Notes under the pieces: model-generated
The model's input: the letters and a program-made list of their open reading frames with translations, nothing else
What the model was told of the DNA's origin: nothing
Databases searched by the model: none
Shown here: positions 27,071-63,706 of the stretch, one piece after another
How positions within the stretch are numbered: the stretch's first letter is position 1
How the letters are laid out: the number at the start of each line of letters is the position of its first letter
Program-made: the position numbers and the translations under genes
From: Candidatus Gottesmanbacteria bacterium
GTDB taxonomy: Bacteria > Patescibacteriota > Microgenomatia > UBA10105 > UBA927
DNA length: 64,000 bases
Direction of reading: 5' to 3'
Assembly: GCA_963790805.1 (NCBI GenBank)
Contig: CAWBPL010000002.1
Coordinates: forward strand, 320,696-384,695

Positions 27071-28692
27071 AAAATTGTTACGCTTACGTACGGGTATCAA
27101 CGGAAGAACAAAAAAATAAGGGCTACTCCCCAGATAACCAAATTAGGCAGCTAAGAGACTATGCCCAAACGCATGAGTATCATATTAAAAAAATCTTTGA
27201 TGACAGCGGAAGAAGCGGTCGGTCAACTGTACATAGATATGAACTTCTAAATCTCCTAGAAGCAATTGAAAAAACTCCCGTAGATGCTCTTATAATTTAC
27301 AAAATTGACAGGCTTTGCCGCAATGTAACGGATTTTTCAAAAATGTATAACGACTTCAAGGCAAAGGGTATTAAAATACTTTCTGTAAATGAAGGCGACT
27401 TAATGGAAGGAAACAGCCTAATTCCAAATATATTTGCAAGTGTTGCTCAATGGGAAAGCGAAACCAATTCATCAAGGACAAAGGATGCTTTGATGGAGAA
27501 GTTTGAACAGGGGTGGATGCCAATTCGACCGCCGTTAGGCTATCGAAGCGTTGGGGGCAAAGACGAGAAAAAAACCTGCGAACCTGACCCATTTGAAGCT
27601 CCTGTTATCAGAGAGCTGTTTGAGATTTACGGAACGGGAAATTATTCAATCCTGGCATTAAAGGAGTGGCTAGAGGAAAAAAATATCATTTCCCGAAACG
27701 GTACTCCGCTTGGAGATTCAGTAATGGATAATATGCTTCGGAACCCTTTCTATTACGGACTTATCCGATGGCATGGTCAGTCAAAAATTGGCAAACATAT
27801 CCCTATTATCAGTAAAGAACTTTTTAACACGTGCCAGTACGTTTTAGCAAAACATCGAAGTTTTCTTTTAAGGCGTAGGGTGCATGACTTCCTACTGCGG
27901 GGGTTTATTTTCTGTTCCGAGTGCGGGCAACGATATACCGCCGAATGGCATAAAGATGCTAAAAAATTAGTAAAACGAGGCGGGCGAATTGCTTACTACC
28001 ATTGCCAGAAACGCGAAAGTAATGGTTGTCCCGCTCCGTATGTGGAAATGACGGATTTGGAATCACAGGTTGAGCAGGAAATGCAGAATATGCAGTTTAG
28101 TCAGGAATTTATTGAGGCGGTGGTAAAAAAAGCGAAAGAGATAGTTGAAAATAGTCGCAAAAGCTCTCAATCAGTAAAACAAGGGGTTATAAACCAAAAA
28201 ACAGCTTTGGAGGAAAAACGCAATAAACTTGAGGACGCTCTTTTGGACGGAATCTTAGACCGAGAAACTTTCAAAAGAAAACATGAAGAAATTCAGGGTA
28301 AAATTGCTAACCTAGATAACCAAGTACAGGACGTGGAAAATAAAAACCACCTAGACGTTGACCTGATTGAAGAAGTCTTATCTTTCACAAGAAATATATA
28401 CCAAACGTATAAGAGTGCCCCGCCGTTCCTTAAACGGCACTACCTAAGATTCTTTTACGAAAAGCTCATTGTTAAAAATAAGCTGATTTACCAAACAATA
28501 CCCACCCCGATTTTCTTGTCCTTACAAGATAATCGCGGGCTTATAATAAGAAAACTCAGCTCCCCCGGCAGGATTCGAACCTGCAACCTTCTTCTTACAG
28601 TTTGCTTTCTGTTACCAAAAAGGCTGGACTATCTTATCATCCCGATAAAATCGGGAGTCGGGTATATAGTCTCTACACATTTATCCACCTAA
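27067..28692 (+). CDS. large serine recombinase (resolvase-type N-terminus, recombinase and zinc-ribbon domains, coiled coil)
   Basis: YAYVRVSTEEQ has the catalytic Ser motif. It also has RLCRN, a Cys cluster CSECG...CQKRESNGC and a long coiled-coil region, with GGGAGG 5 nt before the ATG. The last 45 or so codons are antisense to the tRNA-Asn. Confidence 0.85.
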   Translation: MKNCYAYVRVSTEEQKNKGYSPDNQIRQLRDYAQTHEYHIKKIFDDSGRSGRSTVHRYELLNLLEAIEKTPVDALIIYKIDRLCRNVTDFSKMYNDFKAKGIKILSVNEGDLMEGNSLIPNIFASVAQWESETNSSRTKDALMEKFEQGWMPIRPPLGYRSVGGKDEKKTCEPDPFEAPVIRELFEIYGTGNYSILALKEWLEEKNIISRNGTPLGDSVMDNMLRNPFYYGLIRWHGQSKIGKHIPIISKELFNTCQYVLAKHRSFLLRRRVHDFLLRGFIFCSECGQRYTAEWHKDAKKLVKRGGRIAYYHCQKRESNGCPAPYVEMTDLESQVEQEMQNMQFSQEFIEAVVKKAKEIVENSRKSSQSVKQGVINQKTALEEKRNKLEDALLDGILDRETFKRKHEEIQGKIANLDNQVQDVENKNHLDVDLIEEVLSFTRNIYQTYKSAPPFLKRHYLRFFYEKLIVKNKLIYQTIPTPIFLSLQDNRGLIIRKLSSPGRIRTCNLLLTVCFLLPKRLDYLIIPIKSGVGYIVSTHLST

Positions 28693-28827
28693 GGCGGAAT
28701 TTAGCTCGGGATTGTCCTAAACCAATACGGTGCAGGAGTCCCCCGAATTAGCCCGATTTTCATCAAAATATTGCTATTTGGCGCTGCCTTGTGACAGGAA
28801 GCCGCTCTACCGTTGAGCTACAGGGGA
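28560..28827 (-). tRNA. tRNA-Asn(GUU) interrupted by a group I intron (exons 28794-28827 and 28560-28597)
   Basis: The joined exons read TCCCCTGTAGCTCAACGGTAGAGCGGCTTCCTGT/TAAGAAGAAGGTTGCAGGTTCGAATCCTGCCGGGGGAG. That gives a 7-bp acceptor stem, D and T arms, and the anticodon loop CUGUUAA. CCA is not encoded. Confidence 0.8.
28598..28793 (-). ncRNA. group I intron (IC3-like) in the tRNA-Asn anticodon loop
   Basis: The 5' exon ends in U, which pairs as CUGU with the intron's GCAG (P1 with a U.G pair). The intron ends in G. Core-like elements are ACAATCCCGAGCTAAAT, the CCGCC-tta-GGTGG hairpin, and GTAGAGACTAT...ATAGTCC (P7) enclosing the TCCCGAT-ttt-ATCGGGA hairpin (P8). Confidence 0.7.
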
Positions 28828-52018: not shown

Positions 52019-52471
52019 TTATAAATACTTAATCATCGGCTGATACACCGTCCCTTTACTTTTTATGAGTCGTGTCGACTTTTTGTATCCCATTTTTTTA
52101 TAAAAATTTTGAGCATATAAAGAAGAATGAACCACTATTTTCTTTGAGCCCCTACCTATAAATACTTCTTCTATTTTTTTTATCAATTTCGTCGCAATTC
52201 CCTGTTTTTGAAAACCTGTATCCACAAACAATCTTGTTATCAAAAAGTTATTTTTACCTTCAATTACACCCATTACTTTATTATCTGGGGATAGCGCTAT
52301 ATATTGATCTCTGTCTTTTGATCTTTCAATTATTTTCTCAGTAGACTGTTCTGATAGACAATATTGTATCGCCTTTTCTGTCCACCCTATCGCAACGAAT
52401 TCATTAAAAACTCTACAGATAAGATCGGAAGTTGTTTCTGCATCTGAAGCTATTAACTTTCGAATAATCAT
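52019..52471 (-). CDS. GNAT-family N-acetyltransferase
   Basis: The acetyl-CoA-binding segment FQKQGIATKLIKKIE. Confidence 0.85.
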   Translation of the reverse strand: MIIRKLIASDAETTSDLICRVFNEFVAIGWTEKAIQYCLSEQSTEKIIERSKDRDQYIALSPDNKVMGVIEGKNNFLITRLFVDTGFQKQGIATKLIKKIEEVFIGRGSKKIVVHSSLYAQNFYKKMGYKKSTRLIKSKGTVYQPMIKYL

Positions 52472-52556
52472 ATCTAATATAAACAGACGAACCCTATCTT
52501 TTTAGGTTCTAGTCCCTTTCTCACTTAGCCTTACCTCAAATCAATTCTTAAATCTG

Positions 52557-52643
52557 CGGAAGGGGCGGGATTTGAACCCGCGGTCACCTTGCGGCGACAC
52601 GCGCTCTCCAAGCGCGCGCACTAGACCACTATGCGACCCTTCC
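52557..52643 (-). tRNA. tRNA-Ser(GGA)
   Basis: GGAAGGG acceptor stem, the anticodon arm CGCGC-TTGGAGA-GCGCG, a long variable arm and the T arm CGCGGGTTCAAATCCCGC. Confidence 0.85.
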
Positions 52644-52892
52644 TCTAATTGTTTCTTCCAACAAATATTTTAATCGCTCTCTACCTTTACCCGATTTCAA
52701 AAACAATTCTTCAGATTCTGCGTCCCCTTTTGATATAAATGCTTCATAATATATAAGATTCCAAGGCTTCCCCCTATTAGTATAGTTAGATGTTCCGGCG
52801 TTATGTTCACGTAATCTCACTCTTAAATCACCAGTTAAACCAATATATTTCTTTTGCAACCTATCACTCCAAATAATATATACGTAAAACAT
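52629..52892 (-). CDS. GIY-YIG nuclease-family protein (UPF0213-like)
   Basis: FYVYIIWS...KYIGLTGDLRVRLREHN. Its last 15 nt overlap the 5' end of tRNA-Ser(GGA). Confidence 0.8.
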   Translation of the reverse strand: MFYVYIIWSDRLQKKYIGLTGDLRVRLREHNAGTSNYTNRGKPWNLIYYEAFISKGDAESEELFLKSGKGRERLKYLLEETIRGRVA

Positions 52893-52977
52893 GACCACTT
52901 CCGCCCAAGGCGGACTGATCCGCCGAGGCAAATTCTTAACCCGCCTCGGGCGGGATGCGACCCTTCCAATAGGTGAA

Positions 52978-53520
52978 TTATACCATCTGAAGAGGAAATT
53001 CTTTGAAAATCTCGTTCACGCTCCCATCGAGGCCGATGTTTACAAGATGGAGCGCTCGCGCTGTAAATTCAAACTTCACCATTTGCAGCTTTGATACAGC
53101 TTGTTTTGCGTCTTCCGCCTGATGAAAACGGGTAATGGTAATATGAGGCAAGAATATTTCACCGGCCACCGAGGATAATTTTTTTCCAAGCTTCCCTACA
53201 TCGGAAAAAATGCGGCGTTGGAGTGCCGCAATACCCTCGTCTTTATTCATTTCCAAAAAGAGAAACCGTTCAAATATTCGAAACGCCTTAGGCTGTACGG
53301 TAAACGGTGAAGTGGTCCGCGCAATAGATACTAGTTTCTCTTCCATAAACGTTAGGTTTTCCTCGGAATATTCGCCCTGATATAACGTGATATGTGGGTA
53401 AAAATGTTTCCCGTCGAGGACAAAATCTGTTTTGTATTCAGCAGCAATTTTGCGGCTCCACGCCATTGCCTGCTTGGCAACCGTCGGCGGCGGAAGAATA
53501 ACGATATTTCGGGTTACCAT
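52978..53520 (-). CDS. 2H phosphoesterase / 2'-5' RNA ligase (LigT-like)
   Basis: Two HxT motifs (HITLYQG and HITITRF). Confidence 0.75.
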   Translation of the reverse strand: MVTRNIVILPPPTVAKQAMAWSRKIAAEYKTDFVLDGKHFYPHITLYQGEYSEENLTFMEEKLVSIARTTSPFTVQPKAFRIFERFLFLEMNKDEGIAALQRRIFSDVGKLGKKLSSVAGEIFLPHITITRFHQAEDAKQAVSKLQMVKFEFTARALHLVNIGLDGSVNEIFKEFPLQMV

Positions 53521-53562
53521 ATATGCGGCGCGTTTACCGCGCTAATACAACGCTTAATTATG

Positions 53563-53634
53563 TGCTTCTGTGCAGAGTCGAACTGCAATCACACCCTTCG
53601 GAGGGGCGTATTCTATCCATTGAACTACAGAAGC
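53563..53634 (-). tRNA. tRNA-Arg(CCG)
   Basis: GCTTCTG acceptor stem, the anticodon arm CGCCC-CTCCGAA-GGGTG and the T arm TGCAG-TTCGACT-CTGCA. Confidence 0.85.
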
Positions 53635-53795
53635 TTCCGAGACAAAACCTATCGGTTTTTTCCCGACGATTTTCCCCAAGCCGTGTCGCAAAGCTATTCT
53701 CATCTGTATCGCACGCTTGCGACTATGTTAAATCTGTTATTTCGACTCGTTACCAAATCGTACGGAATTAAGCTTTCTTGGCGTATTATATCGCC
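53635..53795 (-). promoter_or_regulatory. promoter (GGCGATATAATACGCC) plus a structured leader of about 145 nt for tRNA-Arg(CCG)
   Basis: It is homologous in architecture to 55796-55957. Confidence 0.55.
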
Positions 53796-53805
53796 AATAG
53801 GGGAT

Positions 53806-54225
53806 TTAGGACAGTTTAGAGAGATCGCCGTTGAGGATGACGGGTCTCATAGCATAAAGCTCAAGTTCACAATACTCCATGGCGGGAATGGGATTCAAAA
53901 GGTAAATTTTTTTCCCAAGGTAAAACGCAATCCCCATTTCCAAAAACGTATTCCCGCCTATATAGCCAGCAATTTCCTTTTTATCGTAATTGGCTACCAG
54001 CACGACGTCGGACTGTTCAATTTTTCTGAAGTGTTCGCGGATAAAATCATATTTTGCCTCGGCGGCCAGTCGTTCCTCAACTGTTGCGGGTTTTTTAAAC
54101 GTTTTATTTTCCAATAAGTCAAAGCTCTTTGGCACCAGCACGGTGTGCCCCGATGCTTCAAGCGTATGTTGAAGCTGGCGCATTTCTTTATAAAAATTGA
54201 GGCTTCCGCAGATGGCAATGGTCAT
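53806..54225 (-). CDS. nucleoside 2-deoxyribosyltransferase-like protein
   Basis: MTIAICGSLNFY start and a 139-aa Rossmann-like pattern. Tentative. Confidence 0.5.
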   Translation of the reverse strand: MTIAICGSLNFYKEMRQLQHTLEASGHTVLVPKSFDLLENKTFKKPATVEERLAAEAKYDFIREHFRKIEQSDVVLVANYDKKEIAGYIGGNTFLEMGIAFYLGKKIYLLNPIPAMEYCELELYAMRPVILNGDLSKLS

Positions 54226-54242
54226 ACATGGGTACCTGCGTG

Positions 54243-55499
54243 TTAATTTTTTGTTACATCACGAATTGTTGAAATTAAAATATCTAACCCCTTATCTAAA
54301 ACTTCCTTTTGTATTGTTATCGGGGGAGCTAAATGAATATTACTTTCACTGTCGCAAACAATGTGAAGGTTATTTTCAAACGCTTGCTGCATAATTTTCA
54401 TTACTAATTCAGTATTTTTTTCTTTTGTTTGTTTCGTCTTCACTAAATCTAAACCGGTAAACATTCCTAATCCTCGAATATCTCCAACAAATGGATTATC
54501 CCGTAATTCCCTCCACAGCACATCGCGAATATATGTCCCCTTACTTTCCGCCTGCTCCCACACTTTATCGCGCTCGTGAATTTCCAGCGTCTTTGATGCA
54601 ATCGCACAGGCAACGGGATTCCAGCCAAAAGTGGATTGTAAATTGGAGCCAGCGTAGGTTTTTTCCGCTATTTCTTTCGTCGTCACCATAGCGGCAATTG
54701 CTGCTGATCCGTTCGATATGGCTTTAGCAAGCGTAACAATGTCCGGCTGAGCATGAAATCTGTGAACGGCAAACAGAGATCCTATTCTGGAAAAGCCGGT
54801 TCCAACTTCATCCAGAATCAACAGGGTACCGTACGTACGAGTTGTCCTTCGGATAAGCTCAATAAATCCTTTTGGAGCAACATAGGTAGTACCCCATCCG
54901 GTAATGATGCCTGCTTCAGTAATGACAGCGGCTATATCATTTTTCGATAGAATATTCTCCAATTGTTTTTCCAAGTCTCCCAGTAATTCCTGTTCAGATT
55001 TATCAGTTCTATACGTATTGGGATATTCCAAATGAACAATATCGTAACGTGGATCGGTCAGAGATGTCATCCATTCCTCTCGATAACTTAATGAAAGGGC
55101 ATTGATTGAACTACCATGAAACTGTTCGTAAAAACTGAGTATCTTTTTTCTTCCAGTAAATACTCGTGCTGTTTTTAGCGCCATCTCAACGGCTTCCATA
55201 CCTCCCGTGGCACGAGCAACTACGGATAAATTATTTCCTAAAGCTTGTGTGAGTTGTTTTGCATAATATTTTTGAGTGCTATCCAATGCCCACATGGGGG
55301 AATACGTGTTTTTTTTCATCTGGCGAATTCCGGCCTGAACGATCTCATCATTGTTCCACCCTAGGTTTACAACATTCCACCCCGCAGTAAAATCGATATA
55401 CTTATTGCCCGCTTCATCCCAAATATAACTATCTTTTGCTTTTTTTAGATTAAACCTCCATGCAGAAAATTTAGTAAATACAATGCCTTCTGTAATCAT
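54243..55499 (-). CDS. class III pyridoxal-phosphate-dependent aminotransferase
   Basis: LILDEV.TGF.R and the TLAKAISNG Lys motif. Confidence 0.9.
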   Translation of the reverse strand: MITEGIVFTKFSAWRFNLKKAKDSYIWDEAGNKYIDFTAGWNVVNLGWNNDEIVQAGIRQMKKNTYSPMWALDSTQKYYAKQLTQALGNNLSVVARATGGMEAVEMALKTARVFTGRKKILSFYEQFHGSSINALSLSYREEWMTSLTDPRYDIVHLEYPNTYRTDKSEQELLGDLEKQLENILSKNDIAAVITEAGIITGWGTTYVAPKGFIELIRRTTRTYGTLLILDEVGTGFSRIGSLFAVHRFHAQPDIVTLAKAISNGSAAIAAMVTTKEIAEKTYAGSNLQSTFGWNPVACAIASKTLEIHERDKVWEQAESKGTYIRDVLWRELRDNPFVGDIRGLGMFTGLDLVKTKQTKEKNTELVMKIMQQAFENNLHIVCDSESNIHLAPPITIQKEVLDKGLDILISTIRDVTKN

Positions 55500-55569
55500 A
55501 GTGAGGTCAGTATATCAAAAATAATCCGAACGTCCTACCAAAAAAATACTATTATGTACTATAAACCTG

Positions 55570-55658
55570 CGGAAAGGGCGAGATTCGAACTCGCGTAGGC
55601 TCTTTCGAACCTCCAAGGTTTTCGAGACCTGGCCGTTTAACCTCTCCGGCACCTTTCC
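55570..55658 (-). tRNA. tRNA-Ser(CGA)
   Basis: GGAAAGG acceptor stem, the anticodon loop CTCGAAA, a long variable arm and the T arm GCGAG-TTCGAAT-CTCGC. Confidence 0.85.
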
Positions 55659-55723
55659 CTTCGCCGTCAGAATGATCTCAGGGTAAACTATGTGCTTGCC
55701 CTGAGGAGTCTTCGACGAACGGG

Positions 55724-55795
55724 CGCTCCCGCGCAGAATCGAACTGCGATCAGAGGTTCCGCAAACCCCTATTCTATCCGTTAAACTACGGGAGC
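55724..55795 (-). tRNA. tRNA-Arg(GCG)
   Basis: GCTCCCG acceptor stem, the anticodon arm GGGGT-TTGCGGA-ACCTC and the T arm CGCAG-TTCGATT-CTGCG. Confidence 0.8.
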
Positions 55796-55957
55796 TTTCT
55801 GGGACGGAAACTACGTTTCCTTCCCAACGATCCTTTCTACCAATGAGTCACAAAGGGTTCAAACTCATATATCACACCTTTGTGACGATTTATAGCCATT
55901 TATTCACATCTCTTACTTGATGGTATGGATATCTGGCTTCTTGGCGTATTATACCGC
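55796..55957 (-). promoter_or_regulatory. promoter (GGCGGTATAATACGCC) plus a structured leader of about 146 nt for tRNA-Arg(GCG)
   Basis: See finding 53635-55957 (two tRNA-Arg leaders). It contains the 10-bp hairpin GTCACAAAGG...CCTTTGTGAC. Confidence 0.55.
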
Positions 55958-55977
55958 CATTTGAGGATAAACGAAAC

Positions 55978-56514
55978 TCAGGAGGTAGGCTTTTCAAGCG
56001 GTATTTTATCCGATAACCACGAGGCGGCGTTATCAACCCATGTTTTCTCTGGAACCTCGCGAAAAGGAATATATTTTGTCAGAAGTTCGCGAATCTTTTT
56101 TTGATTCTGACTACCCAAAAGAACAATAATTCTCGGCCCGTAGAGAGGACGCAGAATAAGCATCGTTTGTCCCCATTGTTCTTCAAACCAAAATTCAACA
56201 AGCTCATTCCATCGGTAAAAATGACCAGCGCTTTCCAAACCTAAGTTCGTGATACGATGTTCAACCTCTTCAGGCGGCACTGTCGAGAGCACGTAAATAA
56301 GAAAAACAATCGATACGACGGCTGCAATCAGCAGAAACTCCCGAGCAAACAGAAGTATGACGACCAAAAGAAATACAATAGCGCCAACATTTGTAAAATA
56401 CTCTTTATCCCGCTTCTTAAACAATCGTGAAGGAGAACTCCATGCAAGAAGAATCTCTTGCGACTTTTCAACTGGCTTCTTTACCGCATTGTCCATAAAT
56501 TCAGTATATACCAA
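55978..56514 (-). CDS. membrane protein, hypothetical
   Basis: 178 aa with two central TM helices. It starts 13 nt after tRNA-Ser(UGA). Confidence 0.5.
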   Translation of the reverse strand: MVYTEFMDNAVKKPVEKSQEILLAWSSPSRLFKKRDKEYFTNVGAIVFLLVVILLFAREFLLIAAVVSIVFLIYVLSTVPPEEVEHRITNLGLESAGHFYRWNELVEFWFEEQWGQTMLILRPLYGPRIIVLLGSQNQKKIRELLTKYIPFREVPEKTWVDNAASWLSDKIPLEKPTS

Positions 56515-56527
56515 TCACAGAAACCTG

Positions 56528-56614
56528 CGGAAGGGGTGGGATTCGAACCCACGAAGAGCTTGCGCCCTTACTAGTTTTCAAGACTAGCCTGATCGACCAC
56601 TCCAGCACCCTTCC
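56528..56614 (-). tRNA. tRNA-Ser(UGA)
   Basis: The anticodon arm CTAGT-CTTGAAA-ACTAG, a long variable arm and the T arm GTGGG-TTCGAAT-CCCAC. Confidence 0.85.
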
Positions 56615-56759
56615 ATCTACATAATGCTCGGTTTTTCCCGCACCACTTTCCCGATTTCATCGGGATTAGTGTGCGGGATCCCGAAGTCGTAATCCGCCGG
56701 AGGCGGAAACGTACTTCTGGGACAAGACCGCCGCACTAGACCAACTATGCGACCCTTCC
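56615..56759 (-). other. orphan tRNA-Ser 5' half followed by two stable hairpins
   Basis: The first 28 or so nt (GGAAGGGTCGCATAGTTGGTCTAGTGCG) match tRNA-Ser(GGA) apart from one indel. I found no T arm and no 3' acceptor strand. Confidence 0.4.
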
Positions 56760-56877
56760 TAAAGTGCGTTAATACTTTTCGTATTCCTCAAAATCGTCTT
56801 CGATTTTGAAAAGGAGAAGTCAACGAGCGGGAAGCGTCCATTTATGGATGCGACAAGCGAGTTGTACTTCGACGCAG

Positions 56878-56962
56878 CGGAGAGTGTGGGAGTTGAACCC
56901 ACTCAGGACTATTCATCCCGCAGGTTTAGCAAACCTGTGCATTACCGTTCTGCCCACTCTCC
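56878..56962 (-). tRNA. tRNA-Ser(GCU)
   Basis: GGAGAGT acceptor stem, the anticodon arm CAGGT-TTGCTAA-ACCTG, a long variable arm and the T arm GTGGG-TTCAACT-CCCAC. Confidence 0.85.
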
Positions 56963-57119
56963 AAAGCAATTATATTATTCAAGTCTTTTTCCCTGTGTCC
57001 TTTACTATGCAGTAAGGGATCCCGATTTTCTAAGCCTCACTTCTTGTTCGGCAACAAAATCGATGACATTCCTATTCTGGACACTCTCCAGCGCTTGAAT
57101 TATATCAGCAAAAAAGGCG

Positions 57120-57755
57120 TTAGTCTCTACTTTGAATAACCAGAGCTCTACCGTGGCTGAGCGTGATTTCACCTTGCCCGCCAATAAATTCGTTGCTGAT
57201 GCCGATGGTTTGACCGCGACGAATGATTGTATTCTTAATTTCGTACTTAAAATTCGATAATGTTACTTGAATTGATTGTGTAATTGGTACAAGCGATACA
57301 TACCGGTACCCTGCTCTCTTCTTTAATATTGTGCGACCTCTTCCGATTACCACTATTTCGTTGGTCCTATCCCGAAAAACCGTAAAAATTCCGAGCCTCA
57401 GACATCGTTCAAGAAGATGAATGGTTCCCAATACATGATCCAACCGCGTTCCGCTCCCCCCATACATGACAATGGATTTTGGTTTTTGACGAAGTGCATA
57501 TCGTAGTGCCAATTCGGTATCCGTAAAATCCTTCTCTGACGGAAAAGACTGTACCATCGGTACTTTTTTTCGAATAACCTTCAATTCTTCTTTATTCACC
57601 GAGTCAAAATCTCCTATTGCCACGCTGGGAATAACGCCATGCTGAATTAACCAATATGCTGCCCGATCAACTCCGATTATCACTTCATGTGCCTTAATCT
57701 CACGGATAAAATCTTCAAAAAGAACGCCATTCATCACTATTGCAATGTTTTTCAT
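57120..57755 (-). CDS. thiN: thiamine pyrophosphokinase
   Basis: The start MKNIAIVMNG overlaps the comF stop. It has the VAIGDFDS motif and the C-terminal beta domain. Confidence 0.8.
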   Translation of the reverse strand: MKNIAIVMNGVLFEDFIREIKAHEVIIGVDRAAYWLIQHGVIPSVAIGDFDSVNKEELKVIRKKVPMVQSFPSEKDFTDTELALRYALRQKPKSIVMYGGSGTRLDHVLGTIHLLERCLRLGIFTVFRDRTNEIVVIGRGRTILKKRAGYRYVSLVPITQSIQVTLSNFKYEIKNTIIRRGQTIGISNEFIGGQGEITLSHGRALVIQSRD

Positions 57756-63264: not shown

Positions 63265-63706
63265 AAATTCACCTCCTCTCTAAAACGTTTCGTAAATACG
63301 CAAAAAGCTCCCCGTCAGCGATAGCCTTGCGGCTACCTGCGCGGGTTTCCCCACACAGCCTAAGAGACGCTCTGACGAAGAGCTTACTGTCTCTTAGGAC
63401 TTTTAGTGCCATGCCCCGTTTGGGGTTGTAGGCTATTAAATTGTATCTGGATTATACCAACAAAAACACACATATAACACTTGGGGGGTCACTAATGACC
63501 CCCCCATCGGGGTTGTGAGCACCCCCGCTATAAATAGATTGTCATTATGGGCCGTAGTTAACTCCATTAGACATACGCTATTGTCATTTTTTGATAAAAC
63601 AATAGAAAACTAGAAACTATTCGAGGCTAGTTTCTTTCCGAAAATAAGGAATTCGTCAAAATCTGGTTCCCCACTTACGATTAGTAAGCTATATTCTTGT
63701 GGACAA

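Follow-up and report, generated by a model that had tools for sequence, protein, structure and literature searches.

A two-hairpin leader RNA directly upstream of tRNA genes and protein genes in Candidatus Gottesmanbacteria and related bacteria

Introduction

Structured RNAs that shape the ends of transcripts have been described in several forms. The ompA 5' untranslated region hairpin, the B. subtilis cryIIIA STAB-SD, papBA and cggR-gapA are 5' stabilisers or combine processing with a hairpin. HK022 put, the boxB-boxA of rrn leaders and EAR modify the polymerase, and in systems of the MALAT1/mascRNA and 3'ETS-leuZ type an RNA end is matured by RNase P. Next to nothing is known of gene regulation in bacteria with reduced genomes, most of which are uncultured, and descriptions of structured RNAs from them are few. 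Here we describe a leader of about 95 nucleotides (nt) that lies directly 5' of two tRNA-Arg genes in a 64,000-nt stretch of a Candidatus Gottesmanbacteria genome (assembly GCA_963790805.1, contig CAWBPL010000002.1, positions 320,696 to 384,695 of the forward strand). We call this whole stretch the window, and positions are those of the window unless another contig or locus is named.

The initial annotation of the window was made from its letters alone and had pointed to a conserved, structured precursor segment of about 145 nt that was specific to Arg tRNAs. The structured precursor is borne out by covariation and by homologues in relatives, and the class of explanation that was offered (a processing or regulatory element, or a co-transcribed small RNA) is still the right one. 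However, the conserved unit is about 95 nt long, and it also precedes tRNAs for Met, Ala (CGC) and Gly (GCC and TCC). The two Arg leaders are thus copies of a two-hairpin RNA element that is not specific to Arg.

Copies in the source genome

The source genome is 1.25 Mb in two contigs and is 84% complete. We inspected the 190 nt upstream of all 43 predicted tRNAs and found the two-hairpin leader also directly 5' of tRNA-Met(CAT), tRNA-Ala(CGC) and tRNA-Gly(GCC), with a shortened form at tRNA-Gly(TCC). The Ala-CGC and Gly-GCC copies fill the spacer after another tRNA. Five copies could be aligned over about 95 nt, giving 24 consensus pairs, 11 of them with compensatory changes within this one genome.

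We built a covariance model from the five copies (R1) and searched the genome with it. It matched exactly six places (51.9 to 109.1 bits) and nothing else above noise. The two Arg leaders scored 74.6 and 107.4 bits, so their likeness is more than chance (E about 1e-15 and 6e-24; all E-values given here are rough, as they come from a shortened calibration). All six copies are on the same strand as their tRNA and end at -1 to 0 nt from its 5' end, which is directly 5' of +1, where a pre-tRNA leader would be. The R1 search of the genome found no element before the rRNA genes, and the other three Arg tRNAs (CCT, TCG and TCT) are without it both in the upstream listing and in this search.

Structure and covariation

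Each full copy begins with an A-rich lead-in (AAAUC), followed by a first hairpin (P1), a linker, a second hairpin (P2) and a tail of 2–4 nt. P1 has 12–14 pairs, a base that is usually GUCGCGA/UCGCGAC and an apex of variable length. The single-stranded linker of about 18 nt ends in a purine-rich ..AGGGAAAAUCG. P2 is made of UUGGGA, an A/G mismatch, a 6-bp A-rich upper stem, the loop and then GUCCCAG. Across the class there is hardly any variation in the linker and the base of P2. The P2 loops are not conserved, being GNRA, UNCG or three-base loops. By eye, a similar AAAUCGU precedes both hairpins and the linker resembles the 5' strand of P2.

Pairing in the relatives is far above that of shuffled alignments. 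In a set of 69 distinct copies from genomes of the same order (the order set), 95.2% of cells pair versus 78.8% in shuffles, and none of the 500 shuffles reached the observed value. Both sides have changed at 21 of the 24 pairs, and when the partner was slid by 1–3 columns pairing was 32–58%. In a second set of 67 distinct sequences from metagenomes, all 12 P1 pairs covary, with 89.7% paired versus 79.3% in shuffles. Sequences entered this metagenome set if they matched the linker and the P2 5' strand exactly, so that only P1 was free to vary. Both alignments were fitted to the model, which favours structure, but the effect size and the slid controls make model fitting unlikely as a full explanation of the covariation. 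G-U pairs are frequent among the 69 copies (UG 35 times at one P2 pair, GU 15 times at one P1 pair). Because these would be A-C mismatches on the opposite strand, they favour the sense-strand RNA as the folded molecule.

Two other readings of the hairpins were rejected. A small peptide encoded in the leader, with a UUG start in P2, does not fit with stem changes in P2 that are compensatory and not codon-like. A promoter inside P2 was dismissed by inspection, as TTGGGA with a 17-nt spacer leads to TCCCAG or TCCCAT without the essential A at position 2 of the -10. We also considered, by eye, a K-turn, a C/D-box or a loop-E at the apex of P1; the strand order is unfit for a K-turn.

Some copies carry long insertions. 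In the metagenome loci L138 and L169 (L and G numbers are our own labels), P2 of the copy before rplL has a 24-nt insertion in its apical loop, within a 117-nt match. L055:1274-1389 has a similarly long insert in P2. From these three we conclude that the apex of P2 tolerates insertions.

tRNA genes as downstream partners

In the order set, 46 of the 69 distinct copies end at most 3 nt from a tRNA found by ARAGORN on the same strand, and 22 tRNA species are represented. Rfam adds two adjacent tRNAs that ARAGORN missed. Arg-CCG is among the commoner hosts in the relatives (5 of the 46). Directly after three further copies comes a tRNA 5' half, with a full tRNA 67–130 nt on; these are probably interrupted tRNA genes. 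The rest of the order set consists of tandem P2-only units, a single copy at the end of a contig and three copies between protein genes. The metagenome set has 67 distinct contexts: a tRNA is adjacent in 30 and within 150 nt in 2, and 2 more lie at the end of a contig. In three genomes of one genus (L071-L073) the copies occupy the same tRNA loci (a Phe-Gly-Gln cluster) and have locus-specific sequence, which points to vertical descent.

The source genome has a full-length match to RNase P RNA (RF00010) at 68.6 bits, below the gathering score of 100, and RnpA at 64 bits, over its cut-off. Below-threshold RNase P RNA matches are reported for such lineages in passages of an earlier study (PMC8172020). 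Of the 87 genomes of the order, 74 have an RF00010 match, and the scores are similar whether a genome is rich in the element or lacks it. The presence of RF00010 does not track the element, and we rejected a link to loss or divergence of RNase P RNA. A link to encoded CCA was rejected as well, because most tRNAs of the genome have no encoded CCA, whether they have the element or not.

A few observations on the tRNA genes themselves are worth recording. At two loci 5' of tRNA-Pro(GGG) (L070 and L074; G087:C3 and G083:C33) a full element is followed by 1–3 extra linker-P2 units, then 23–24 nt, then the tRNA. A copy of the tRNA's own 5' part stands before tRNA-Cys (886958), tRNA-Leu-TAA (1107515) and tRNA-Ile-TAT (240913) in G000:C2, with the full gene 55–130 nt on. 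The same kind of copy is present at L057, L036, L022, L100, L101 and L105, and the Leu-TAA copy includes the promoter. Such loci could be tRNA genes that are interrupted or carry an intron, or they could be small insertions in which the 5' half was duplicated. There also seems to be a pairing of small GIY-YIG genes with tRNA genes: one such gene, for 100 amino acids (52629-52931, minus strand), ends right before tRNA-Ser(GGA), and a similar coding tail lies directly before tRNA-Val(GAC) (G000:C1, 12609).

Protein genes and other placements

In other families of the class and in the metagenomes we found a second context, in which a strong GGAGGUGA-type ribosome-binding site begins 1–10 nt after the element and is followed by a start codon. 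Of the 67 metagenome contexts, 19 have a ribosome-binding site (Shine-Dalgarno) with an open reading frame of at least 30 codons directly downstream. Another 14 were classed as 'other' by our simple rules, including three or four missed ribosome-binding-site cases and five copies in tandem arrays.

The downstream proteins that are over Pfam cut-offs are HU, YbaB, bL12 (two contigs), ATP synthase subunit c, GvpA, a pilin with an N-terminal methylation motif, a camelysin/TasA-like protein, DUF5679, a cupin, LemA, a BON-domain protein and a mechanosensitive-channel-like protein. Two more are just under their cut-offs (bS21, 25.6 bits versus 27; GvpO, 23.4 versus 25), and four downstream proteins have no Pfam match. 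The element is also placed inside operons, between rplJ and rplL (two contigs), between atpB and atpE-atpF, and between pilC and a pilin gene. In each of these it sits just ahead of the subunit needed in excess.

Other copies are arranged in tandem. In these arrays the linker and P2 are followed by GGUCAGCGCC and then by a short hairpin, and the unit repeats about every 85 nt. Such arrays recur in the metagenome contigs L126, L156, L167 and L176. Both flanking genes of the arrays are on the opposite strand, judging from start and stop codons read by eye. At L016 a hairpin and a U run come after the element. As a separate observation, the copy at L108 (G167:C24:100-1100) points at an apparent reverse-complement 16S rRNA 3' end (AAAGGAGGTGATCC...) and would converge on a 16S gene, the identification as 16S being by eye.

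Distribution and novelty

R1 has a match in 12 of 41 genomes (the source genome and 40 relatives). Across the order, the element is present in 35 of 87 genomes including the source genome, with 31 of 80 in family f1 and 3 of 6 in family f2. A genome can have up to 15 matches, and the distribution is patchy, ranging from 0 to 15 within genus g13. We built a second model (R2) from 71 matches and found the element in 24 of 151 class-sampled genomes, spread over many other families. In 151 phylum-sampled genomes R2 gave only three weak matches outside the class (27–28.6 bits), in one of which (L093) the linker and P2 consensus is recognisable by eye. An exact search for a 23-base core gave 71 stretches in the metagenome collection. 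All of these counts are lower bounds, as the filters of the large scans were strict, and the genomes are mutually related. In the source genome, uL30 has no match above cut-off; with the small genomes and the below-threshold RNase P RNA, this suggests a lineage like those of the Candidate Phyla Radiation.

No family of Rfam 15 matches the leaders, either in a gathering-threshold scan of the whole window or in a scan of 52400-57300 at E<=10. Near the leaders only tRNAs match, and inside a leader there is one weak match to CRISPR-DR22 (53727-53759, 18 bits versus a gathering score of 50). The Rfam models of small self-cleaving ribozymes (hammerhead, twister, pistol, hatchet, HDV-like) do not match even at E<=10; the consensus is two separate hairpins with no junction, unlike a multi-helix ribozyme core with conserved catalytic nucleotides. 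There is also no Rfam match to a T-box. A T-box leader has a specifier and a T-box sequence, stands before aminoacyl-tRNA synthetase or amino-acid genes and contains a terminator or a ribosome-binding-site sequestrator; our element is found before the tRNA genes and before protein genes that are unrelated to one another. The 224 motifs of a large survey are presumably included in Rfam, which gave no match. A full-text literature search found no description of the element, in texts that did not extend to the motif-survey supplements (PMC5737381). We consider it well supported that this is a previously uncatalogued family of structured 5' leaders, and it is unusual in that one homologous leader is used for tRNA genes and mRNAs across a class.

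Candidate promoters

In most of the 56 full-length copies a TAnAA(T/A) box ends 2–3 nt before P1. At L187 and L168 the box is a perfect TATAAT with ATGTCA, a fair -35 hexamer, 18 nt upstream. Among the 37 element-free tRNAs of the source genome, 18 have a TAnAAT merely 6–15 nt from +1. One of these close boxes bears on the initial annotation, which had described a tRNA-Asn with a -10 box about 18 nt upstream. ARAGORN finds no tRNA-Asn within the window, and the tRNA with a close TATAAT (6 nt upstream) is tRNA-Ser(GCT) at 56877-56962.

Given the close boxes at element-free tRNAs and the box at P1, the element looks as though it was inserted between promoter and gene, or brings its own promoter. 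Since the box abuts P1, the module probably brings or follows its own transcription start. Alternatively, the box might be an AU-rich cleavage site just before P1.

Proposed function and alternatives

In all of the main contexts the RNA is one that is needed in quantity, and the element makes up its 5' part. For this reason our leading explanation, which we hold tentatively and would stop short of calling probable, is that the element is a portable, co-transcribed leader for genes with high-output products. The module would be transcribed with the downstream RNA, on the same strand. P1 would provide a base-paired 5' end, either primary or made by processing, and P2 would separate or insulate the leader from the tRNA or the ribosome-binding site. 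The near-invariant linker and P2 base would most likely be the binding site of a putative conserved factor, which would raise or tune output by acting on RNA stability, on processing or on elongation. At tRNAs, the module would be removed by an RNase P cut at +1.

Several points weigh against this explanation. What the sequences show is the family with its fold, strand, positions and gene contexts; we infer the transcription start, co-transcription, the stabilising or factor-binding action and the release by RNase P, and the abundance or high expression of the downstream products is general knowledge on their families. A start at the usual distance from the box falls inside the 5' strand of P1, and the outer P1 pairs covary, so some transcripts appear to start further upstream; such starts would come from the distal TATAAT at the two Arg loci or from read-through inside operons. 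A plain stabiliser would not need a near-invariant linker. Mature tRNAs have no need of a stabilised 5' leader, and the RNase P protein, which contacts the leader, might bind less well, and not better, with a helix 3 nt from the cleavage site. Three copies (L051, L148, L182) lie between convergent genes with no same-strand gene downstream, and two of these rank in the top three of their set by model score. In three genomes of one genus, a single intergenic region holds arrays of two or three tandem linker-P2 units and no tRNA (L067, G087:C2:60700-61700; L068, G083; L069, G076).

A broader form of the proposal is that a class of ultra-small bacteria, like those of the Candidate Phyla Radiation, uses one dedicated, conserved leader RNA as a common expression cassette. 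We regard this as rather unlikely, and it is of interest for what would follow from it. The leader would serve up to about one third of the tRNA genes as well as the most abundant proteins (HU, bL12, ATP synthase c, pilin, gas-vesicle and bS21-like proteins). A conserved factor would read it and set output, or couple output to growth state. This would be a global, RNA-based control of gene dosage in place of the promoter-level control of model bacteria.

The element would also improve annotation, as it marks tRNA 5' ends and operon-internal expression units, and it is a natural, compact candidate for an expression part. A specific binding factor, if one exists, would mean a new regulatory system. 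The idea that a shared leader sets high output for stable RNAs and mRNAs is a testable hypothesis.

The alternative that survives best, though we think it unlikely, is that the element is a released small RNA of about 95 nt with a hairpin at each end. It would act in trans, and its exposed GGGAAAAUCG linker could, for example, titrate an RNA-binding factor. Its 3' end would be made by RNase P or by cleavage before the ribosome-binding site, and the downstream genes would merely share a strong promoter. The copies between convergent genes, two of them top-scoring, and the tandem arrays without tRNAs are what this alternative would expect, and the hairpin with a U run at L016 and the sequence conservation of the single-stranded linker also agree with it. 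However, trans action has no need of strict abutment (0–3 nt) and constant orientation, and most copies have no terminator of their own; in the source genome no copy has, after P2, the U run in which the Rho-independent terminator of an Hfq-dependent small RNA would end. Apart from one weak match per limit, no complement to the linker and the P2 5' strand exists within 5 mismatches in the genome. Candidate partner proteins are also below cut-off in this 84% complete genome: the best match to CsrA/RsmA (PF02599) has 15.9 bits in a 400-amino-acid frame, under the 27-bit cut-off, and the best to Hfq (PF17209) has 11.5 bits.

The resemblance between linker and P2 is the basis of another alternative, a switch, which we consider improbable. 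Three segments of the GGGA type (AGGGAA in the linker, UGGGAA in the 5' strand of P2 and, in mRNAs, the AGGGAGG ribosome-binding site) would vie for the one UCCC strand that P2 has. Whether the RNase P site or the ribosome-binding site is accessible would then depend on a bound factor or ligand, and tRNAs and abundant proteins would come under common control. The linker copies the P2 5' strand and, by eye, co-varies with it in divergent subfamilies (UGGAAAG with UUGGAAAGG; GGAAAG with UGAAAG), and AUCG or AGCG in the linker goes with GGGA/UCCC or GGGG/CCCC in P2. It also fits that P2 ends 1–10 nt before a strong GGAGGUGA-type ribosome-binding site. These correlations, however, were seen by eye and may be due to the common descent of subfamilies. 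The element has no junction of several helices, and its loops are not conserved. The tRNA 5' strands offer no GGGA partner, and in the genome copies no terminator-like U run follows P2.

Patchiness and copy number bring up a selfish or neutral repeat of the REP/MITE type, whose hairpins would act as DNA (for instance with a single-strand-DNA transposase) and which would accumulate between genes. Up to 15 copies per genome, the range of 0 to 15 in genus g13, tandem duplications, the AAAUCGU before both hairpins and the copies between convergent genes would all suit such a repeat. We think it very improbable. No Y1 transposase (IS200/RAYT type) is above cut-off in the 84% complete genome, where the best match to PF01797 has 13.3 bits versus 23 and an internal stop, and by eye there are no terminal inverted repeats or target duplications. 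The positions at orthologous tRNA loci within a genus, the constant orientation and abutment to the downstream gene start, and the location of most copies at gene 5' ends speak against it too; REP sequences keep no set orientation towards their flanking genes and lie mostly at gene 3' ends. Enrichment before high-stoichiometry genes within operons is not expected of a neutral repeat.

Finally, the idea that the leader is confined to Arg tRNAs and serves as a sensor or regulator related to Arg has next to no chance of being right: two of the six genome copies precede Arg tRNAs, with their extra 50 nt and -10 box, and Arg-CCG is a common host in relatives, but the other four copies are at Met, Ala or Gly tRNAs, three Arg tRNAs lack the element, and relatives have it at 22 tRNA species and many protein genes.

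The two tRNA-Arg loci

The two tRNA-Arg genes belong to a group of six tRNA genes (ARAGORN and Rfam) on the minus strand between 52.5 and 57.0 kb. The features of the two leaders are collected in Table 1.

Table 1. Coordinates of the two tRNA-Arg genes and the parts of their leaders in the window
Feature	Position	Strand	Evidence or remark
tRNA-Arg, anticodon GCG	55722..55795	minus	ARAGORN; Rfam tRNA 56.6 bits
Leader element copy directly 5' of tRNA-Arg(GCG)	55796..55891	minus	Model R1, 107.4 bits, E 5.8e-24; same as G000:C2:376491-376586
Arg-GCG copy, tail AAA	55796-55798	minus	
Arg-GCG copy, P2	55799-55827	minus	
Arg-GCG copy, purine-rich linker	55828-55846	minus	
Arg-GCG copy, P1	55847-55886	minus	
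Proximal -10-like TATAAA, Arg-GCG copy	55889-55894	minus	Abuts P1
Upstream leader segment, Arg-GCG, distal -10 box to P1	55892..55942	minus	Pairwise alignment; outside model-covered region
Distal -10 box TATAAT (55948-55953) between GGCG and CGCC arms, Arg-GCG	55943..55958	minus	Read from sequence; candidate promoter about 145 nt 5' of tRNA
tRNA-Arg, anticodon CCG	53562..53634	minus	ARAGORN; Rfam tRNA 60.2 bits
Leader element copy directly 5' of tRNA-Arg(CCG)	53635..53728	minus	Model R1, 74.6 bits, E 1.1e-15
Arg-CCG copy, tail AA	53635-53636	minus	
Arg-CCG copy, P2	53637-53666	minus	
Arg-CCG copy, linker	53667-53684	minus	
Arg-CCG copy, P1	53685-53723	minus	
Proximal -10-like TAACAT, Arg-CCG copy	53725-53730	minus	
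Upstream leader segment, Arg-CCG, distal -10 box to P1	53729..53779	minus	Pairwise alignment
Distal -10 box TATAAT (53785-53790) between GGCG and CGCC arms, Arg-CCG	53780..53795	minus	Read from sequence

Much of what the initial annotation had said about these two loci is confirmed. Both leaders have the same architecture and can be aligned along their whole length, with ATCGTYGGGAA common to both and the second hairpin stopping 2–3 nt before the tRNA. Our own count of the lengths from the distal -10 box agrees with the earlier values of about 144 and 146 nt. Both hairpins differ in sequence and keep their pairing, as had been said: across the two leaders RNAalifold predicts 25 pairs, and at 8 of these both partners have changed with pairing intact. 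Folding of the single leaders compared to shuffles gave z = -2.1 for Arg-CCG and -4.4 for Arg-GCG. The R1 match stops 0 nt from the tRNA 5' end in the Arg-GCG copy and enters the tRNA by 1 nt in the Arg-CCG copy.

The palindrome GGCG...CGCC that was described around the distal -10 box is present at both loci, but its arms are merely 4 bp. The two loci have in common the block GGCG(A/G)TATAATACGCCAAGAA (53775-53795 and 55938-55958), and the pattern GGCGRTATAATACGCC, which is the -10 box with its arms, has exactly two occurrences genome-wide, at these loci. The distal TATAAT is a possible promoter. A simple sigma-70 scan did not call these boxes, there being no fitting -35 hexamer. Among the 43 tRNA upstream regions of the genome, the first 50 nt or so of the leader and the GGCG..CGCC -10 box are common to the two Arg loci only. 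Because they are confined in this way, the simplest account is a local duplication of promoter, leader and tRNA-Arg.

Other features lie nearby. The 63-nt spacer between tRNA-Arg(GCG) and tRNA-Ser(CGA) (55659-55721, minus strand) has an inverted repeat, CCTCAGGG...CCCTGAG, which may be a processing hairpin. Directly 3' of tRNA-Arg(CCG) is a gene for a LigT/2'-5' RNA ligase-like 2H phosphoesterase (52978-53520, minus strand), for which we found no link to the leader. Elsewhere in the window there is a LOOT RNA (RF03000) at 63320-63434 (minus strand; 66 bits, over the gathering score of 46.4) and a Group I intron (RF00028) at 28605-28808 (minus strand; 69.9 bits).

Comparison with known systems

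Among systems that resemble the element in being repeated, CsrB/RsmZ sponges have repeated GGA units, and the element forms tandem arrays in some genomes. However, there is no CsrA above cut-off in the genome, and one GGA of the element is in a stem and not in a loop. REP/BIME sequences, with RAYT, are short, multi-copy intergenic hairpins with conserved sequence 5' of the stem, and they are sometimes tandem or convergent, as the element can be. The element differs in its fixed orientation and abutment and in its orthologous positions across a genus, and its genome has no Y1 transposase.

In systems where RNase P matures an end (MALAT1/mascRNA, 3'ETS-leuZ type), the likeness is that cleavage at the tRNA 5' end would make the 3' end of the upstream RNA. 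There the function has been shown, whereas for our element the release is something we infer, and the ribosome-binding-site contexts have no obvious RNase P site.

The polymerase-modifying RNAs are similar in arrangement, with two stem-loops in the first 100 nt or so near a promoter-like box, ahead of genes for stable RNAs and highly expressed genes. The element shows no sequence likeness to them, has no Rfam match and was not found before rRNA genes. An antiterminator would also not lift one gene above its upstream operon partner.

In a 5' stabiliser leader, a hairpin at the extreme end of the transcript gives the downstream RNA a longer half-life. The element resembles such leaders in having a structured 5' segment with a hairpin that, to judge from the box abutting P1, would lie at or near the 5' end, a purine-rich, Shine-Dalgarno-like stretch, and a position before an operon gene that is made in excess. 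Those leaders each belong to a single gene and have no family-wide sequence conservation, while the element described here is a homologous family, with a near-invariant linker, found at many loci in front of both tRNAs and mRNAs.

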